Positions 4,706 to 33,308 of a stretch of 64,000 bases of DNA are shown here, one piece after another. This DNA is from an uncultured Caldilineales bacterium. GTDB lineage: Bacteria > Chloroflexota > Anaerolineae > JAAEKA01. The notes beneath the pieces are model-generated. The model was not told where the DNA came from and ran no database searches. It worked only from the letters and a program-made list of their open reading frames with translations. Positions within the stretch are counted from its first letter, which is position 1, and every line of letters starts with the position of its first letter. The stretch is from the NCBI GenBank assembly GCA_937907455.1, contig CALESQ010000120.1, positions 35,447 to 99,446 of the forward strand. The letters are read 5' to 3'. A program made the translations under genes and the position numbers.

Positions 4706-5317
4706 TTACTCCTGACGACTTACTCTGTACTGTTCGCGGGTGTCGAGGTCGGTCAACACGCTGGGAGTGTCTACAGGCAGGTAGGTAATCTCCGCGGCGT
4801 GTTGTTGAAGCACGCTGCGCAAGGTGTTATCCCAGGAAAGGGCGAGGATTTCAGGCCACAGCCGCCGTGGCAGGGTGATGGGATGGCCGCGGCGCATGGC
4901 ATAGCTGGGTACGATCAGCCCGCCACCGTCGCCGACGCGGAAAGCCTCCACTACCTGCCGCGCCACCGGCGCTTCCATTTGGGGCTGATCAGCCAGAGCC
5001 AGCAGCGCGCCCGCGCTTTGGCTATCTGCGGCAGCCAGCGCCGTTTGGATCGAGGAGAGCATTTCGCCGCTATGGTAGTGGGGGTTGCGCACGCAGCGCA
5101 CTGCATATCCCCGCAGTCGCGCTTCGATTTCTTCACCGCGGTGGCCAGTGACGATGATTATTTCGTCTACTGCTGCGGCCAACAGTGTGTTGACTACGGT
5201 TTCTATGACAGTGGCAGTGCCCCACGGCAGCAACGGTTTGGGCAGGGGGCCGCCCATACGCGACGACAAGCCCGCTGCTGGCACAATGGCGCTGATTCGG
5301 TGCGCATGCGATGTCAT
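4706..5317 (-). CDS. MobA-like NTP transferase (molybdenum cofactor cytidylyl/guanylyltransferase, MocA/MobA family)
   Basis: Start placed at MTSHAHRISAIVPAAGLSSRMGGPLPKPLLPW (nucleotidyltransferase P-loop-like motif); the ORF-track extension to 5554 runs through the octamer repeat array and is judged spurious. Confidence 0.7.
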   Translation of the reverse strand: MTSHAHRISAIVPAAGLSSRMGGPLPKPLLPWGTATVIETVVNTLLAAAVDEIIIVTGHRGEEIEARLRGYAVRCVRNPHYHSGEMLSSIQTALAAADSQSAGALLALADQPQMEAPVARQVVEAFRVGDGGGLIVPSYAMRRGHPITLPRRLWPEILALSWDNTLRSVLQQHAAEITYLPVDTPSVLTDLDTREQYRVSRQE

Positions 5318-6504: not shown

Positions 6505-6600
6505 GGGGGTGGATGTGTCCCGGTGGGCGCCCCGGTCTTCAAAATCGGTGGTGGGTGCCGCACAGGCAGCCACGGTGGGTTCGACTCCCATCCACTCCCG
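6505..6600 (+). tRNA. selC: tRNA-Sec (selenocysteine tRNA, anticodon UCA)
   Basis: Hand-folded: 8-bp acceptor stem (GGGGGTGG/CCACTCCC, one GU), 6-bp D-stem with 4-nt D-loop, anticodon loop CTTCAAA (UCA), long variable arm (~25 nt with stem), T-arm GTGGG-TTCGACT-CCCAT with GGTTCGACTCC identical to E. coli selC, discriminator G; 8/5 acceptor/T architecture typical of bacterial tRNA-Sec. Coordinates +/-2. Confidence 0.75.
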
Positions 6601-25790: not shown

Positions 25791-27227
25791 TTATTCAGGA
25801 ATAATCGTCCAGCCGGGCCGGCCTTGCAGTTTCCACATGAAGGTTTCGTGGATCATGCGCTTCATCCAGGCGCCCGCCAGACCCATCTCCATGTGGGTGA
25901 CTTGCAGGTCGCGCCCGGCTTCGTTCGGGAAGCGGCGCTGATCCGGCACGACCGGATAGATGTTGATAACCACGGCTGCGCCATCGCGCAGCGAGTCGCC
26001 CATCGAGGCGATGCACGATGCGAACATCTCGGACATGCGCTCGTGGTGGGTCATGCGCCCCTTCTTGATCAGGTCAATCACGTTCAGCGCCACGACACGG
26101 CCAATGATGCCCGACACCATGCCGGTGCGCGGCGGCGCGGCAGTGATGGATGTGCCGTTGGGGGTGACATGGGGCATAGAAATGGGGCCAGGCGGGGCAA
26201 AGGCAATGCCCGCGGCAAAGATGTTGCGGTAGGTGGGGTTTTGGTACACCGAGGGCCAGGCATCGGGGTTTTCCACCAGCACTTCGTAGGGCAGGCCGTA
26301 GATGCCATCCGTCAGGATAAAGCCCGCCTTGTTGGTGAGCTTATCAGAAACATCCTGGCCGTCGCTGCCGATGTAGCGCAGCGGCGCGCCGGTGAATTGC
26401 GGGATCAGCATGGCAAAGTCATACGGCGTTTCACCGTAGTTGCCCTCGAAGTCTTCCCAGTGGATGCTGTTCGCCTCGACGCGATGTACCCCTTTTTGAA
26501 TCTCCCAGGCAATGTCGTAGTCTTTGAAGATCGAGTGGATGAAGTCCTCGCTGTGGTAGACCTTGCCGTGCTGACGCACGCTGACCCCGTGCACGCCGAA
26601 ATCGCCCAGCGCCTGCTCGTTGGAAAGCCAGGTGAGCTGCACGCGGTCGCGCACCCCCTGCTTCACCAGGTCGCGGTGAATGTTGATCAGATACTCGAAG
26701 CCCGCGCCCTGGCAGGTTGCGCCCGGATGGCCGGTGCCGATCACCATGCGGCTGGTCTCGCCCTTTTTCAGACGCTGCACGATCTCCAGATAGCGGTCGC
26801 GCGCCTCAATCGCGTGCGGCAGGGTGCAGATCGAATGGCTCAGGCCCGCTTTTGGCCCCAGACCGGGCGTGCCCTCGTAGTTCAGCTTGGGGCCGGTGGC
26901 AATGATCAGGTAGTCGTAAGGCTGGCGCAGCAGTGCGCCGTCATCTGCTTCCACCACCACATATTGATCCTGCGGGTCGGGGTGAATTTCCGTGGCCTTG
27001 CCAATCACCAGCTTGACGTGCATCCGGTCGTAAACCGGTTTTAGCTTGAAGGTAGTCTTTTGCGGGGCCATGTGGCCGATCCCGACCCAGACCCAGGAGG
27101 GCACAAATCCAAAGAAGTCATAGCGATTGATGACTGTAATATCATGCTCTTTGCCGAGCCGATTGCCAAGATACAATGCCGCTGTATGTCCGGCAAAGCC
27201 GGCACCGATCACCACAACTTTAGCCAT
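25791..27227 (-). CDS. sqr: sulfide:quinone oxidoreductase (FAD-dependent, SQR family)
   Basis: start at MAKVVVIGAGFAGHTAALYLG (GGAGG RBS); YDYLIIATGPKL matches the Aquifex-type SQR motif. Confidence 0.75.
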   Translation of the reverse strand: MAKVVVIGAGFAGHTAALYLGNRLGKEHDITVINRYDFFGFVPSWVWVGIGHMAPQKTTFKLKPVYDRMHVKLVIGKATEIHPDPQDQYVVVEADDGALLRQPYDYLIIATGPKLNYEGTPGLGPKAGLSHSICTLPHAIEARDRYLEIVQRLKKGETSRMVIGTGHPGATCQGAGFEYLINIHRDLVKQGVRDRVQLTWLSNEQALGDFGVHGVSVRQHGKVYHSEDFIHSIFKDYDIAWEIQKGVHRVEANSIHWEDFEGNYGETPYDFAMLIPQFTGAPLRYIGSDGQDVSDKLTNKAGFILTDGIYGLPYEVLVENPDAWPSVYQNPTYRNIFAAGIAFAPPGPISMPHVTPNGTSITAAPPRTGMVSGIIGRVVALNVIDLIKKGRMTHHERMSEMFASCIASMGDSLRDGAAVVINIYPVVPDQRRFPNEAGRDLQVTHMEMGLAGAWMKRMIHETFMWKLQGRPGWTIIPE

Positions 27228-27348
27228 AGAGGGCCTCCTGGAGAGAAACAGAGACAGGGGTGTTTTTGCAAACCACGGAGCCGCAGTAAACCGCATTCAC
27301 TCAGACGCGGTTTAGCCGGAAAGGTTACTTTTTCAGATGAAATGAAAG

Positions 27349-27377
27349 TTGACAAACTTTCCTGTCCTGATTATACT
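27349..27377 (+). promoter_or_regulatory. sigma70-type promoter of ilv leader (-35 TTGACA, 17-nt spacer, -10 TATACT)
   Basis: direct reading. Confidence 0.5.
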
Positions 27378-27417
27378 GCGCCTACGTTTGAGACAGGCAG
27401 TTTTTAGTTTATGTCCT

Positions 27418-27519
27418 ATGGCTACCACCGGTTCTACGCTCTTCAACCTCCTTGTCATCCTCATTAGTGTGCTCCTGGTACTTGCCGGGAGCCAATGGCA
27501 GCTGGGAACCGAGCGTTGA
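27418..27519 (+). CDS. ilvB leader peptide (33 aa, branched-chain-rich: MATTGSTLFNLLVILISVLLVLAGSQWQLGTER)
   Basis: run of 14 Leu/Val/Ile codons in 15; lies between the promoter and a rho-independent terminator upstream of ilvB. Confidence 0.55.
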   Translation: MATTGSTLFNLLVILISVLLVLAGSQWQLGTER

Positions 27520-27552
27520 ACCACTTGTAGCAACATCACAAGCATGTGCGAA

Positions 27553-27583
27553 ACCCCTCCCAGCCGCGGAGGGGTTTTTTATT
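27553..27583 (+). terminator. rho-independent attenuator terminator upstream of ilvB
   Basis: CCCCTCC-cagccgcg-GGAGGGG followed by TTTTTTATT. Confidence 0.65.
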
Positions 27584-27741
27584 GAATTGGATAGCAGCCG
27601 GTTAGCTAAATCAAGTCGCTTTCCGGAGTATGGCAAGCCGATCCAGGCGATGAAGCCTCTATCTGATCTGCCCAGCAAGGGCGGGCTCAGGTTGAGGCTT
27701 TTTGTATCTGGTTGGGCAAACACAGGAAAGGTGTGATTCAC

Positions 27742-29460
27742 ATGGAGAAGACAGGCGCTCAAATCGTTTGGGAGACCATTTTGCGCGAAGGCGTGGATAC
27801 GGTCTTCGGCTATCCCGGCGGTGCGACTTTGCCCATTTATGACGCTATGCCGGCATATCCCATCCGCCATGTTCTGGTGCGCCACGAACAGGCTGCCGTC
27901 CACATGGCCGAAGGCTGGGCGCGTGCCACGGGTAAGGTCGGTGTGGCGCTGGCTACCAGCGGCCCCGGGGCTACCAATCTCGTCACTGGTCTGGCAAATG
28001 CCATGATGGATTCGATCCCGATTGTGGCAATCACCGGTCAGGTGGCTACTCATCTGCTGGGCGGCGACGCCTTTCAGGAAACCGACGTGACCGGCATCAC
28101 CTTGCCGATCACCAAGTACAACTATCTCATCACCGACATTGCTGATCTGGGTGAGGCGCTGGTTGAAGCGTTCTATATTGCGCGTAGTGGGCGCCCCGGC
28201 CCGGTGCTGGTGGATATTTGCAAAGACGTACAAAACAGCAAAATTGACTGGGAATACTCTGCTGAGTTGACTCGCCCCGGTCTGGTGAAGGTGTTGCGCG
28301 AACAGCCCGACGCCGTGGTTGCCGCTGCCACGCTGATCAATCAGGCACAGCGCCCGCTGATTATTGCCGGCCACGGTGTGCAGATGGGCGAGGCTCAGGC
28401 TGAATTGATGGAGTTGGCAGAGCGGGCTGAAATTCCCGTGGTCACCACGTTGCTGGGTATTGGTGTCATTACCGAGAACCACCGCCTGGCCCTGGGCATG
28501 GGCGGCATGCACGGCGAGGCTGCCACCAATCACGCCGTGCAGGAATGCGATGTGTTGATAGCTGTGGGAATGCGCTTCGATGACCGTATCACCGGACGGT
28601 TAGATCAGTTTGCACCCAAAGCTAAAGTGATCCACTTCGAGCTGGATCCCTCCGAGGTGGGCAAGAACGTCAAACCCGCGGTGACTGTGCTGGGCGACTG
28701 CAAGCATACCCTGGGGCAACTGCTGCCGAACATCGAACCAAAGCAGCATCAGCAATGGCTGACAACCATTCATGAATGGCAGGACACCACCGGCAAGGTA
28801 GACATTGCCAACCAGGAAGTAGATGAGCTGATCCCGCCTTTTGTGATGCGCCAACTGTGGTATGCCACGCAGGGCAATTGCACGGTGGTGACAGACGTAG
28901 GCCAGCATCAGATGTGGGAGGCCCAATACTTCACCCATCTGCGCCCGGGCCAGTTGATCACCAGCGGCGGGCTGGGCACGATGGGCTTCGGCGTGCCTGC
29001 GGCTGTGGGAGCCAAGATTGGCCGCCCTGACCAATTGGTTTGGGTGATGGTGGGCGATGGTGGCTTCCAGCAAACCATGCAGGAATTGGGCACCATTATT
29101 CAGGAAAATGTCGGGGTGAAAATTGGTATCATCAACAACGGCTTTTTAGGCATGGTGCGTCAGTGGCAGCAGTTCTTCTATGAAAAGCGCTATGCCGGCA
29201 CGCCGATGATCAGTCCAGATTACATGAAGCTGGCTGATGCCTACGGCATTCCTGCATTGCGCGTGACCAAAAACGATGAGGTTTTTTCGGCCATGCAGCA
29301 GGCCAACGCTCATGATGGCCCCTTCCTGATCGAATTCCGTGTGATGGAAGAAGTAAACGTGTACCCGATGGTGGCCCCCGGCGCGGCCGTCGGTGATATG
29401 ATCCGCCGCCCCGGCCCCGCCATTGTCCAGGGCTATTCCGGTGTGCAACCGAGTTGGTAG
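27742..29460 (+). CDS. ilvB: acetolactate synthase large subunit
   Basis: start [27 protein letters not shown]; ThDP-enzyme motifs. Confidence 0.9.
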
Positions 29461-29696
29461 ATTGGTAAGTAGTCAGGAGTAAGTAGTGAGCAGTTGAAGA
29501 GTCTGTGTGAAAGCGTTGCAGAGAATTCCGAAGTGGCAATTTTACCCGTTGAGTTGCCGTAAGCTGGTTAACCCTGGCTTTAGGCGATTTGCCACTTCTG
29601 AATTCTGAATTTCGATTTCTTTAACGTTTTTCAGAGATTGTTTAACTCCTGACGATTTACTTCTTACTCCTTACTGTCTGCAAAAGGATTGAGACC
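29461..29696 (+). promoter_or_regulatory. 236-nt highly structured ilvB-ilvN spacer (nested inverted repeats; GGAGTAAGTAG / CTTACTCCTTAC flanks; 17-bp palindrome GAATTCCGAAGTGGCAA...TTGCCACTTCTGAATTC)
   Basis: direct reading; ilvB and ilvN are usually adjacent. Confidence 0.4.
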
Positions 29697-30230
29697 ATGA
29701 AACACACAGTCGTCGCATGGATGGAAGACCGCCCCGGTGTTTTGTCCCGCGTATCCAATTTGTTCCGCCGTCGTGGATTTAACATCGAAAGCCTGGCCGT
29801 TGGCCCCAGCGAAACTTCGGGCATCAGTCGCATGACCTTTGTGGTGGATGGCGATGAGCGCATGGTGGATCAGGCCGTCAAGCAACTGGAAAAGCAGATT
29901 GACGTGACCCGCGTCGAGGATGTCACCGATCAGCCGGTGGTCGTGCGCGAGCTGGCGTTGATCCGGGTGCGCACCGACACACAAACCCGCACCGAGATCA
30001 TGCAGATCGTGGATGTGTATCGTGCCCAGATTGTGGACATTGCTCTCGATTCGCTGATTATTCAGGTGGTGGGTGCGGAAGAGCGCATTAACAGCCTGAT
30101 TGATCTGCTGGACCACTATGGCATTCGTGAGATGGTGCGTACCGGACGCGTAGCCATCACCCGCGGGCGCGCTACACTGGAAAGCGCACAGCATAATGGC
30201 AACGGCAATGGCCGCAAGATGGGAATTTAG
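29697..30230 (+). CDS. ilvN: acetolactate synthase small (regulatory) subunit
   Basis: [42 protein letters not shown] domain. Confidence 0.85.
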
Positions 30231-30303
30231 TGCAATAGTACGCAGGTGAGATGGTGAGATAGCGGTTGTTCTATAGTCGCGGCACTGCTTTTGCCAGGCC
30301 TCG

Positions 30304-30408
30304 CTACACATTCACCAACTCACTCACTATCTCACTATCTTACTATCTCACTAACTCACTAATTCACTATCTCACTCCCACACTCCCACACTATCTCTAC
30401 TTTACCCC
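30304..30408 (+). repeat. 105-nt G-less octamer-repeat tract (CTCACTAT x~10) in ilvC 5' leader
   Basis: direct reading; preceded by complementary purine-type copy GGTGAGATGGTGAGATAG (30246-30263). Confidence 0.8.
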
Positions 30409-30417
30409 GAGGAATTC

Positions 30418-31422
30418 ATGGCAACCTTATTTTACGAAAAAGACGCAGATCTCTCCCGCCTGGCAGGCCGCAAAGTCGCTGTAATCGGTTATGGCAGCCA
30501 GGGGCACGCCCACGCGCTCAACCTGAAAGACAGCGGCGTAGACGTGATGGTAGGGCTTTATCCCAATTCGCCAAGCTGGAGCAAGGCTGAGGCCGCCGGT
30601 CTCACCGTCAAGACGGTGGAGCAGGCCGCGGACGAAGCTGATATCATCATGGTGGTAATCCCCGACACGGTGCAGGCGCGTGTGTACAAGCAAAGCATCG
30701 AACCGGCTCTGCGTCCCGGCAAAACATTGATGTTCGCCCACGGCTTCAACATTCGCTTCGGCCAGATTACGCCACCCGATTTTGTGGATGTGAGCATGAT
30801 TGCACCCAAGGCCCCCGGCCATCGTGTGCGTGAGGTTTATCAGGACGGTCAGGGTACACCCGCGTTGGTGGCCGTGCATCAGGATGCTTCCGGCCACGCT
30901 TTGGCCGATGCCATCGCTTACGGCGCGGGGGTCGGCTGTGCCCGCGCTGGTCTGCTGCTCACTACTTTCACCGAAGAAACCGAAACCGACTTGTTTGGCG
31001 AGCAGGCCGTGCTCTGCGGTGGCGTTAGCGAGTTGGTAAAATCCGCCTTTTATACCCTGGTGGATGCCGGTTATCAGCCTGAGGTGGCTTATTTTGAGTG
31101 TATGCACGAGCTGAAGCTGATCGTAGACCTGTTCTACCGCGGCGGCCTGAGCTACATGCGCTACTCGGTGAGCGACACCGCCGAACATGGCGATTATCAC
31201 AGCGGCCCCAAAGTGGTCACCGACGAGACCCGTGCCGCCATGAAGGGCATTTTGGCCGATATTCAGAGCGGCGCTTATGCCGAGGATTGGATTGAAGAAA
31301 ACGCCAAGGGGCGTCCCTGGTTCGATGATGTGCGCGCCCGTGAGCGCGATCAGCAGATCGAAACCGTAGGCCGTCAACTGCGCAGCATGATGCCCTGGCT
31401 GCATCCCGTGGAAGTCGAATAG
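30418..31422 (+). CDS. ilvC: ketol-acid reductoisomerase
   Basis: [40 protein letters not shown]. Confidence 0.9.
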
Positions 31423-31437
31423 TTGGTACGAGGAATA

Positions 31438-31648
31438 AGTACACAAGTAGACAAGGAAGAAGTACACAAGCAGACAAGGAAGAAGTACACAAGTAGACAA
31501 GGAAAAAGTACACAGGCAGATGTAGATAAGGAAGAAGTACAGAATACATAAAAATTCCCAGTCACCTGTGTACTTGTTTACCTGTCTACCTGTCTACCTG
31601 TATACTTGTTTACCTGTCTACCTGTCTACCTGTGTACTTGTCTACTTT
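31438..31648. repeat. paired inverted repeat arrays between ilvC and leuA: purine-type 23-nt units (GTACACAAGTAGACAAGGAAGAA x4) then pyrimidine-type octamers (CTACCTGT / CTACTTGT x~10)
   Basis: direct reading; arrays are partially complementary (e.g. GTACACAGG / CCTGTGTAC). Confidence 0.75.
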
Positions 31649-31664
31649 CCCGAAGGAGCCCTCC

Positions 31665-33308
31665 ATGCCCTCACAACCTGATCGCGATGTGATCCTGATT
31701 TTCGATACCACCCTGCGTGACGGCGAGCAGTCCCCGGGTGCTACGCTGACCACGCAGGAGAAACTGGAAATAGCCCGGCAGCTTGCCCGCCTCGGCGTGG
31801 ATATCATCGAAGCCGGTTTCCCGGCGGCCTCGCCTGGCGATCTTGAGGCTGTGCACCAGATCGCCGCGACCATCGGCTGTGAGCAACGCCTGGACAAGTT
31901 CGGCAATCCCGCTGCGCCGCCGGTGATTGCTGGTCTGGCCCGCGCTAACCATAACGACATCAACGCGGCCTGGCAGGCAGTGCAGGCCGCGCAGCGCCCG
32001 CGCATTCATACCTTCCTCGCCACATCGCCCATTCACATGGAGCACAAGCTGAAGATGACACCGGAACAGGTGGTGGAGCGCGTGCGTGAGATGGTGGGTT
32101 ATGCCCGCAGCCTGTGCCCCGACGTGGAGTTTAGCCCGGAGGATGCCGGGCGCAGCGACCCTCGCTTCCTGTATCAAGTGCTGGCCGTAGCCATTGAGGC
32201 CGGTGCTACCACGCTTAACATCCCCGACACAGTGGGCTACACTGTGCCCGCAGAGTATGGCAAGCTGATCCGCGATATCCGCGAAAACACTCCGGGAGCC
32301 CAAAACGTTGTCATCTCCTGCCACTGTCACAACGACCTGGGACTGGCGACAGCCAACACCCTGGCCGGCATCGAAAACGGCGCCCGCCAGGTAGAGGTGA
32401 CGGTGAACGGCATCGGTGAGCGTGCCGGCAACACCAGCTTGGAAGAGATCACCATGGCGCTTTACACCCGCCATCAGGTCTACGAAACCGACACCAACAT
32501 TGTCACCCATGAGATTCATCGCAGCAGCGACATGGTCAGCCGCTACACCGGCATGGTGGTACAGCCCAACAAGGCCATTGTCGGCGCCAATGCCTTCGCG
32601 CACGAGGCCGGCATCCATCAGGACGGCATGTTGAAGCACAAGCGCACCTACGAGATCATGGACGCGGGCACTATCGGCCTGAACCAAAGCAAACTGGTGT
32701 TGGGCAAGCATTCCGGTCGCCACGCCTTCCGTCTGCAACTGGAGCAGATGGGCTATAAGTTGGATGACAAAGACCTGGATGAGGTGTTTCGCCGCTTCAA
32801 GGAGCTGGCCGACAAGAAAAAAGTAGTTACCGACGGCGATCTGCAAGCCCTGGTAGGTGATGAACTCTACAAGCCGCCGGAGACCTGGCAGGTAGAGGAC
32901 GTGCAAGTGAGCTGCGGCACCACGGTGATCCCCACAGCCGTGGTACGCCTGCGCTACGTTGCCACCGGCGAAATCGTCACCGACGCCGGTTTCGGCACCG
33001 GCCCGGTAGATGCGGTGTATCAGGGTATCAACCGGCTGGTAGGTGTTCCCAACCGCCTGGTCGAGTTCGTGATCCAGGCCATTGATCAGGGCATGGACGC
33101 CGTGGGTGATGTGACCATTCGCATCGAAGCTAATGAGCTGATCGGCACGGTGGAGCGTGCGCAGGGCGGCCGCGGCCAGCGCATCTTCTCCGGACGTGGC
33201 ATTGATACCGACATCGTGGTAGCCAGCGCCAAAGCCTACATGCAGGCGTTGAACAAGATGCTGGCTGCCAAAGAAGAGCGCGAGTCGGTGCTGGCTTTGG
33301 GCGTATAG
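31665..33308 (+). CDS. leuA: 2-isopropylmalate synthase (long form with C-terminal regulatory domain)
   Basis: [42 protein letters not shown]; E. coli LeuA-like C-terminal domain. Confidence 0.85.

Follow-up and report, generated by a model that had tools for sequence, protein, structure and literature searches.

The 64-kb window analysed here (64,000 nucleotides, nt, of contig CALESQ010000120.1 from an uncultured Caldilineales bacterium of the Chloroflexota) carries an ilvB-ilvN-ilvC-leuA operon, and the region in front of ilvB has the look of a leader-peptide transcription attenuator. Positions are those of the window and features lie on the + strand unless stated (Table 1). A consensus-like sigma-70-type promoter, a 33-codon leader open reading frame (ORF) and a GC-rich hairpin with a U-run behind it (T1) had all been claimed in an earlier note on this DNA and all are found. 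The ORF is rich in Ile, Leu and Val (I/L/V), which fill 12 of the 15 positions of the run LFNLLVILISVLLVL, not the 14 of 15 first counted, and 11 of the 12 of its sub-run LLVILISVLLVL. Apart from this miscount the earlier observation is confirmed as real, with every element where it had been placed. That ilvB comes next after the hairpin holds in so far as the gene does lie downstream, but it does not follow directly, since a second terminator-like hairpin (T2), absent from the earlier note, is located between T1 and the ilvB start. Transcription would begin near 27384, some 33 nt upstream of the leader ORF, and no further promoter-like site was found on the + strand from T1 to ilvB. Chance is an unlikely explanation of the arrangement because the leader ORF is the sole one of 14-50 amino acids with at least 9 of 12 I/L/V on either strand of the window, because reverse-complement controls of the upstream regions at ilvB loci reach a maximum of 7 of 12, and because the leader RNA folds better than its shuffles (z = -3.3 for 27384-27590 and z = -4.0 for 27384-27745).

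Table 1. Features of the ilvB leader, the operon and the neighbouring gene (window positions)
Feature	Position	Strand	Basis or details
Flavin adenine dinucleotide (FAD)-dependent oxidoreductase, divergent, upstream of leader	25791-27296	-	neighbouring gene
Sigma-70-type promoter	27349-27377	+	TTGACA 27349-27354, 17-nt spacer, TATACT 27372-27377; 11/12 consensus matches
Leader ORF, 33 sense codons + TGA	27418-27519	+	MATTGSTLFNLLVILISVLLVLAGSQWQLGTER; ATG 27418, TGA 27517-27519; 2 Ile, 8 Leu, 3 Val, 4 Thr
Regulatory codon run, codons 8-22	27439-27483	+	12/15 Leu, Ile or Val
Region 1, anti-antiterminator (CCU..UUGUCAU, codons Asn10 to Ile14)	27447-27458	+	minimum free energy (MFE) folds
Inner hairpin inside ORF, GCUCCUGGU / ACUU / GCCGGGAGC	27471-27492	+	27471-79 pairs with 27484-92
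Region 2, antiterminator strand GCAGCUGGGA (G(C/U)UGGGA)	27498-27507	+	pairings and co-variation
T1 intrinsic terminator	27551-27580	+	-17.9 kcal/mol; co-variation; hairpin 27551-27577 (AAACCCCUCC 27551-27560, loop CAGCCGC 27561-27567, GGAGGGGUUU 27568-27577), U-run (six T) 27575-27580
T1-T2 spacer	27581-27653	+	no conserved ORF or structure
Conserved 5' flank of T2, G-Y-R-A-Y-G-A-N (GCGAUGAA)	27647-27654	+	locus comparison
T2, terminator-like	27654-27703	+	hairpin 27654-27699 (about -29 kcal/mol), then UUUUU
ilvB ribosome-binding site (AGGAAAGGUG) and start codon (ATG 27742)	27724-27744	+	-6.2 kcal/mol against the anti-Shine-Dalgarno
ilvB	27742-29460	+	TIGR00118, 720 bits
ilvN	29697-30230	+	NCBIfam equivalog, strong match
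ilvC	30418-31422	+	NCBIfam equivalog, strong match
leuA	31632-33308	+	NCBIfam equivalog, strong match
ilvB-ilvN-ilvC-leuA operon, whole	27742-33308	+	NCBIfam equivalogs

The leader has relatives. Loci gathered via ilvB (numbered with an L, the window DNA itself being L001, whose coordinates plus 24741 give those of the window) yielded 27 homologous Chloroflexota leaders, which precede either ilvB or an ilvD-ilvB operon; the closest are labelled Anaerolineae, Chloroflexota or Caldilineales, and the contig of L205 carries an ilvB protein that is annotated as belonging to Caldilinea, a cultured genus. Conservation of the peptide in related genomes had been named as a check, and the ORF with its I/L/V run is present in all 27, start, stop and frame being kept throughout, at lengths of 26-41 amino acids. 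Where ilvB is the first gene an I/L/V-rich ORF stands upstream in every Chloroflexota locus (L001-L012, L030, L081, L202-L209), and where ilvD precedes ilvB such an ORF lies upstream of ilvD in five of the seven Chloroflexota-type loci checked (L014, L018, L019, L053, L056; none was found in L046 and L054). The promoter is shared too, with TTGACAA and the -10 hexamer invariant or nearly so in L002-L006 and similar promoters upstream of the more distant leaders.

What is kept in these peptides is composition. The sequences diverge freely (for example MLTSLVLLSLLVIVLPVILREPVPAGRPTRR and MFTLFHIIISLILLSLVLIIVNKEAMPVG), each retaining a mixed Ile/Leu/Val run, and all three residues occur in every one of the 20 peptides analysed, in which the I/L/V fraction is 0.49 in frame and falls to 0.26 and 0.06 out of frame. 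Inside the run the window and L002 differ mostly by synonymous changes (about four), with one Leu-to-Val replacement, and where close relatives differ in length they do so by multiples of three. Towards the C-terminus short peptide motifs (VG, REP, KD/KE) are conserved, and these fall on region 2 (GUUGGG) and on the inner hairpin's 3' arm; it is the RNA, and not the peptide, that is under constraint here.

The RNA offers mutually exclusive pairings. Until T1 has been transcribed, region 1 is paired with 27495-27506 in a long, interrupted helix (the 1:2 helix), which encloses the inner hairpin. Region 2 may pair instead with region 3 (UCCCAGCCGC, 27558-27567), which is made up of the entire T1 loop and, from the 5' arm of T1, its last three pairs, and the alternative antiterminator on whose existence the earlier claim turned is thus available. 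Duplex energies are -9.5 kcal/mol for 1:2, -17.5 for 2:3 and -19.9 for 3:4, the last being T1 itself. Region 2 ends 10 nt before the leader stop codon and a ribosome at the stop would therefore cover it; in the 14 loci compared, 0-21 nt separate the GGG of region 2 from the stop that follows it, and the upstream partner of region 2 falls within the I/L/V codons in most of them and at the 5' end of the ORF in L006 and L011.

Co-variation of the three helices carries the argument further. Anchor-based pseudo-alignments, rather than a family covariance model, were used because MAFFT put the 3' arms of T1 out of register; to cut out the blocks for regions 2 and 3, nothing but the sequence anchors UGGG and CCCA was used. 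For the 2:3 antiterminator 78% of cells are paired, against 69.3 +/- 2.1 in shuffled controls (0 of 500 as high), 34-56% are paired in slid registers, and seven of the 12 pairs have changed on both sides. The co-variation runs locus by locus, as swapping partners between loci gives p <= 1e-4 with 14 leaders and p < 5e-5 with 27 (25 of them distinct). Terminator T1 is 98.8% paired against 74.5% shuffled (0 of 500), with compensatory changes in five of eight pairs, a pair count that leans towards structure as the arms were extracted from each sequence's own fold, and the inner hairpin is 92.7% paired against 75.6% (0 of 500), again with five of eight pairs compensatory. The sequence of a terminator loop is normally unconstrained. 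Here the T1 loop tracks region 2 from locus to locus (AGCC/GCAGCU, AAAC/GUUU, AACA/UGUU, AAUC/GGUU). A three-way compensation is seen in L006, in which GGGAGG has become GGAAGG and both terminator arms have changed with it (GGAAGG / CCUUCC / GGAAGG). The parts are thus present and conserved, and three helices co-vary.

Overall it is very probable that a ribosome-mediated leader-peptide transcription attenuator controls ilvB-ilvN-ilvC-leuA in this Anaerolineae-type Chloroflexota bacterium, a reading drawn from sequence comparison. When charged Leu, Ile and Val tRNAs are plentiful the ribosome would reach the stop codon at 27517 and cover region 2, T1 would form and transcription would stop; were the ORF left untranslated, region 1 would pair with region 2 and T1 would again form. 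Scarcity of one of these charged tRNAs would stall the ribosome in codons 8-22, where it would cover region 1 and the inner hairpin and leave region 2 free to pair with 27558-27567 as soon as this is made and before the 3' arm of T1 exists, so allowing the RNA polymerase to read on. Read-through transcripts would then also have to pass T2. We infer that the ORF is translated, that ribosomes stall in it, that folding follows this kinetic order and that the device answers to amino acid supply. The enterobacterial ilvBN/ilvGMEDA logic that the earlier note had proposed is supported in particular by the comparative evidence, namely the conserved ORF and the co-varying alternative pairings.

A number of results weigh against such a switch and have to be set beside this evidence. 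In simulated truncated transcripts the 2:3 antiterminator is the MFE structure in one state only, with the transcript cut at 27569 and the ribosome on codon 11; in the other states it loses to pairing that 5' sequences make across the masked ribosome. In the complete leader, folded with the ribosome footprint masked, T1 is kept in the MFE structure at every ribosome position; as the terminator always wins, equilibrium folding of this kind cannot test a kinetic switch, and truncated transcripts and comparative tests were used in its place. Within the family the antiterminator of the window itself is among the weakest (of its 12 positions 9 are paired, with one A.C mismatch), testing the 2:3 duplex locus by locus yields p = 0.00-0.23, and the U-run adjacent to T1 is missing in two of the 14 loci, L007 and L081. 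Thermodynamics alone is no proof of a switch, the ambiguity is that expected of a kinetic one, and it is the comparative evidence that carries the argument. Initiation at the leader ORF poses a further difficulty. No Shine-Dalgarno sequence was found upstream of it (+0.9 kcal/mol against the anti-Shine-Dalgarno, versus -6.2 for ilvB), only four of the 27 leaders score -6 kcal/mol or lower as against 14 of 16 ilvB starts, and the means are -2.8 for the 27 leaders and -7.7 kcal/mol for the ilvB starts. Translation would have to begin by another route, and a Shine-Dalgarno-independent initiation is possible. Lastly T2, if constitutive and efficient, would block expression of the operon whatever T1 does.

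T2 is kept in 14 loci as a hairpin of 39-64 nt (-21 to -43 kcal/mol) followed by four to six U; the loci share its base GCCUC(AG)/(CU)GAGGC, where some of the changes are compensatory, and vary in its interior. Other members of the family lack T2, or have at its place a long hairpin without a U-run (for example L006, L010-L012 and L205). T2 could act as a fail-safe terminator or as a second checkpoint under regulation, or it could serve to give structure or stability. Candidate routes to a control of T2 were tried and rejected. A relay from T1, whose 3' arm once freed would pair with the T2 5' arm, does not stand out from composition-preserving shuffles (p = 0.07-0.86). As to control by another leader ORF or a mini-ORF, the spacer has no conserved ORF, and the apparent ATG in the conserved 'AUGA' is ACGA in L003, L202, L206 and L208, with no Shine-Dalgarno by inspection. 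An extension of the T2 helix across its U-run is not significant (Fisher p = 0.21). As for an aptamer or other conserved structure in the spacer, RNAalifold finds T2 alone and there is no Rfam match. Nor does T2 seem to be a dispersed repeat, there being no second copy within the window.

It is conceivable, though rather unlikely, that the leader is a two-checkpoint device in which, after T1, the opening of T2 falls to some as yet undescribed factor or process, for example a protein that binds RNA and acts as antiterminator, or another metabolic cue, or in which T2 selectively removes the transcripts that T1 has leaked. That the lineage does stack terminators in ilv leaders follows from L018, where two complete attenuators stand in tandem. 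A stronger version, in which the leader ORF is translated but control is exerted mainly by T2 in answer to another factor, T1 being one stage of two, could call on these tandem units of leader and hairpin, on the strong hairpin and U-run of T2 in 14 loci with its conserved 5' flank (G-Y-R-A-Y-G-A-N-GCC), and on L081, whose T1 lacks the U-run while its T2 has one. It is nevertheless improbable, as T2 has neither an alternative pairing nor an ORF or conserved structure tied to it, many family members have no T2 bearing a U-run (such as L006, L010-L012 and the Caldilinea-type L205), and T1 alone carries the complete attenuator logic.

Attenuation through the leader peptide also has to be weighed against a structured RNA that senses a ligand, protein or tRNA directly, be it a riboswitch, a T-box-like element or a protein-mediated attenuator, with the ORF incidental. 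The conserved hairpins, the conserved choice between terminator and antiterminator and the ORF without a Shine-Dalgarno would all suit this, and guanosine tetraphosphate (ppGpp) riboswitches or T-boxes do control ilvB in some other bacteria (PMC10272879). Yet the window leader matches nothing in Rfam, the T-box and ykkC-type models included, the ORF boundaries and frame are kept in 27 of 27 leaders with an I/L/V enrichment specific to that frame, and sequence outside the helices is poorly conserved, unlike that of an aptamer, so that direct sensing has little to recommend it. Least credible of all is that the ORF encodes a genuine small membrane peptide, hydrophobic and ended by a terminator of its own, with ilvB expressed independently and the link to branched-chain amino acids (BCAA) a coincidence, for although an I/L/V run of about 15 residues resembles part of a transmembrane helix and T1 would be an ordinary gene-end terminator, neither sequence nor length of the peptide is conserved but only its I/L/V richness, its conserved C-terminal residues (xVG, REP, KD) track RNA helices, the ORF always lies directly upstream of ilvB or ilvD, ilvB has no promoter-like site of its own after T1, Pfam and NCBIfam give no match, and the antiterminator co-variation would be left without a role.

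The leader-peptide attenuator preferred here is of a classical type. The ilvGMEDA and ilvBN attenuators of enterobacteria are established systems, with leader peptides IlvL and IvbL, and the window shares with them a short ORF near the promoter (about 32 codons) in which Leu, Ile and Val codons make up a multivalent run, a set of 1:2, 2:3 and 3:4 pairings that exclude one another, and an intrinsic terminator before the first ilv gene. No sequence relationship connects them, however, and the window leader differs in having no Shine-Dalgarno, in the ilvBNC-leuA content of its operon, in the extra inner hairpin within the ORF, in the second terminator-like hairpin, and in a region 2 whose pairing takes in the terminator loop besides the arm. 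In the ilv-leu leader of Bacillus subtilis a T-box likewise sets terminator against antiterminator in response to tRNA charging, but it senses uncharged tRNA directly and without translation, whereas in the window there is no T-box match and it is an ORF that is conserved.

Leaders with runs of BCAA codons had been described in the earlier note as rarely annotated outside Proteobacteria, and this needs amending, since they are documented in Corynebacterium, other Actinobacteria and Staphylococcus aureus. The ilvBNC attenuator of Corynebacterium (the ilvB-II motif) has a BCAA-rich upstream ORF (uORF) and overlapping terminator, antiterminator and anti-antiterminator hairpins (PMC11857589, PMC10272879). 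The three-hairpin logic and the BCAA-rich uORF upstream of ilvB in a non-proteobacterium are shared with the window; the phylum is another one, the Corynebacterium device was tested experimentally whereas the window leader is known from sequence, and the supplementary alignments, in the part available, show no similarity. Narunsky et al. hold uORF attenuation to be common for ilvB and cite the ilvB-II, ilvB-OMG and Leptospira ilvB motifs, the latter two reinterpreted as BCAA/Thr-rich uORF attenuators (PMC10272879). These too lie upstream of ilvB, and the window leader likewise has Thr codons (four), although the ilvB-OMG sequences in the accessible portion of the supplement look unrelated to it. 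A Leu-rich attenuator peptide in the ilv leader of S. aureus (PMC5794164) and leader peptides of BCAA genes in Actinobacteria (PMC1262725) are further cases of the same BCAA leader-peptide attenuation outside Proteobacteria, in different lineages and with apparently different sequences.

Catalogues do not hold the leader. At E <= 10 the one thing that Rfam gave for it was the rnk leader, matched at chance level via the terminator (21 bits, cut-off 55), and at gathering score there was no leader match in the window or in 18 related loci. Pfam had no match to the peptides at E <= 10, and the sole match to the leader-peptide models of NCBIfam (such as PRK10424) was that of the L009 peptide, at 11.1 bits (cut-off 59, E = 0.22). 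The literature searched, which did not take in the cross-bacterial attenuator survey of Lopatovskaya et al. 2010, likewise held no leader-peptide attenuation in Chloroflexota. The mechanism is therefore a known and ordinary one, and it is the lineage and the sequence family that appear to be new. Classical leader-peptide attenuation would thereby extend to the Chloroflexota, in Anaerolineae, Caldilineae and Ardenticatenia-type lineages, a phylum whose gene regulation is almost unstudied and most members of which are uncultured. Such an attenuator implies coupled transcription and translation in these bacteria and fits the proposal that uORF attenuation is common at ilvB (PMC10272879). As a coherent, co-varying family of RNA and uORF it could enter Rfam and the annotation pipelines, which at present call nothing in the leader spacer. 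Its departures from the textbook are the leader ORF without a Shine-Dalgarno and the conserved T2, and these are the sole unusual points.

A scan of metagenomes with the DNA pattern CCGGGAGCC-N7-GYTGGGA returned 120 matches of which 119 were chance ones, because the pattern is too short for a collection of that size; the one true leader, L163, has a peptide identical to that of L003.

Several minor features of the leader region and its relatives may be recorded. A second ATG in another frame, 7 nt upstream of the leader start, opens an 18-codon ORF (MSYGYHRFYALQPPCHPH, 27411-27467) which is also open in L002 and is absent from more distant relatives. Within the T1-T2 spacer, 27626-27644 has 18 of 19 nt identical on the same strand to 32253-32271 in leuA (blastn-short E = 0.02), probably by chance. 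The tandem units of L018 occupy positions 349-710 upstream of ilvD and encode the peptides MFRRLVLVLIVIVLVILGGAFGVGRT and MFTGASFYLLLEVILISSLLLVLEKEARRVGAVPVPVRHRH, each unit with its own region 2 and hairpin, the U-run of the second hairpin being weak. An ORF of about 70 codons lies between attenuator and ilvD in L014 (~556-765), L019 (~618-850) and L053 (~515-725), the N-terminal part low-complexity in appearance and the C-termini similar (EALFDSYND, EALMESFNG, NAFANSYSF). In L030 a glmS ribozyme (1463-1682, - strand) is found just upstream of the ilv leader on the opposite strand.

Repeats recur around the operon. Its three spacers (29461-29696, 30231-30417 and 31423-31631) are long, about 190-240 nt, and in each of them lies a long inverted repeat, both arms of which are tandem arrays of 7-8-nt units, the purine-rich arm first and the complementary pyrimidine-rich one second (for instance AAGTACAC x10 opposite ACCTGTCT x10, and CTCACTAT x6.8), with no U-run after any of the three. 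Long hairpins built of repeats in this same style occur at the T2 position of L006 (2404-2500), L010 (2399-2500) and L012 (2405-2500), with units such as CCAATTACC, GAGATT and CACGAAT.

Elsewhere in the window, the divergent oxidoreductase gives a weak match, far below cut-off, to a selenoprotein-subtype sulfide:quinone reductase model (E = 3e-16), and a tRNA-Sec gene is present at 6505-6599 (Rfam, 71 bits). Outside the Chloroflexota, Acidobacteriota ilvB loci (L015, L017, L031, L041, L055, L066, L072, L078, L080) have Val/Leu-rich short ORF candidates of their own upstream, with peptides such as MSLVLALLVLLALISIGGPVI, MNNLYLHRIRVVVLGVGVFIPSPVWREPAS and MKLTTSRLRLEIVVVVRLVNASLPGGHD, which suggests that this phylum may hold separate leader-peptide families; in one of these loci, L041, an Acido-Lenti-1 RNA lies downstream of ilvB (4840-4885).

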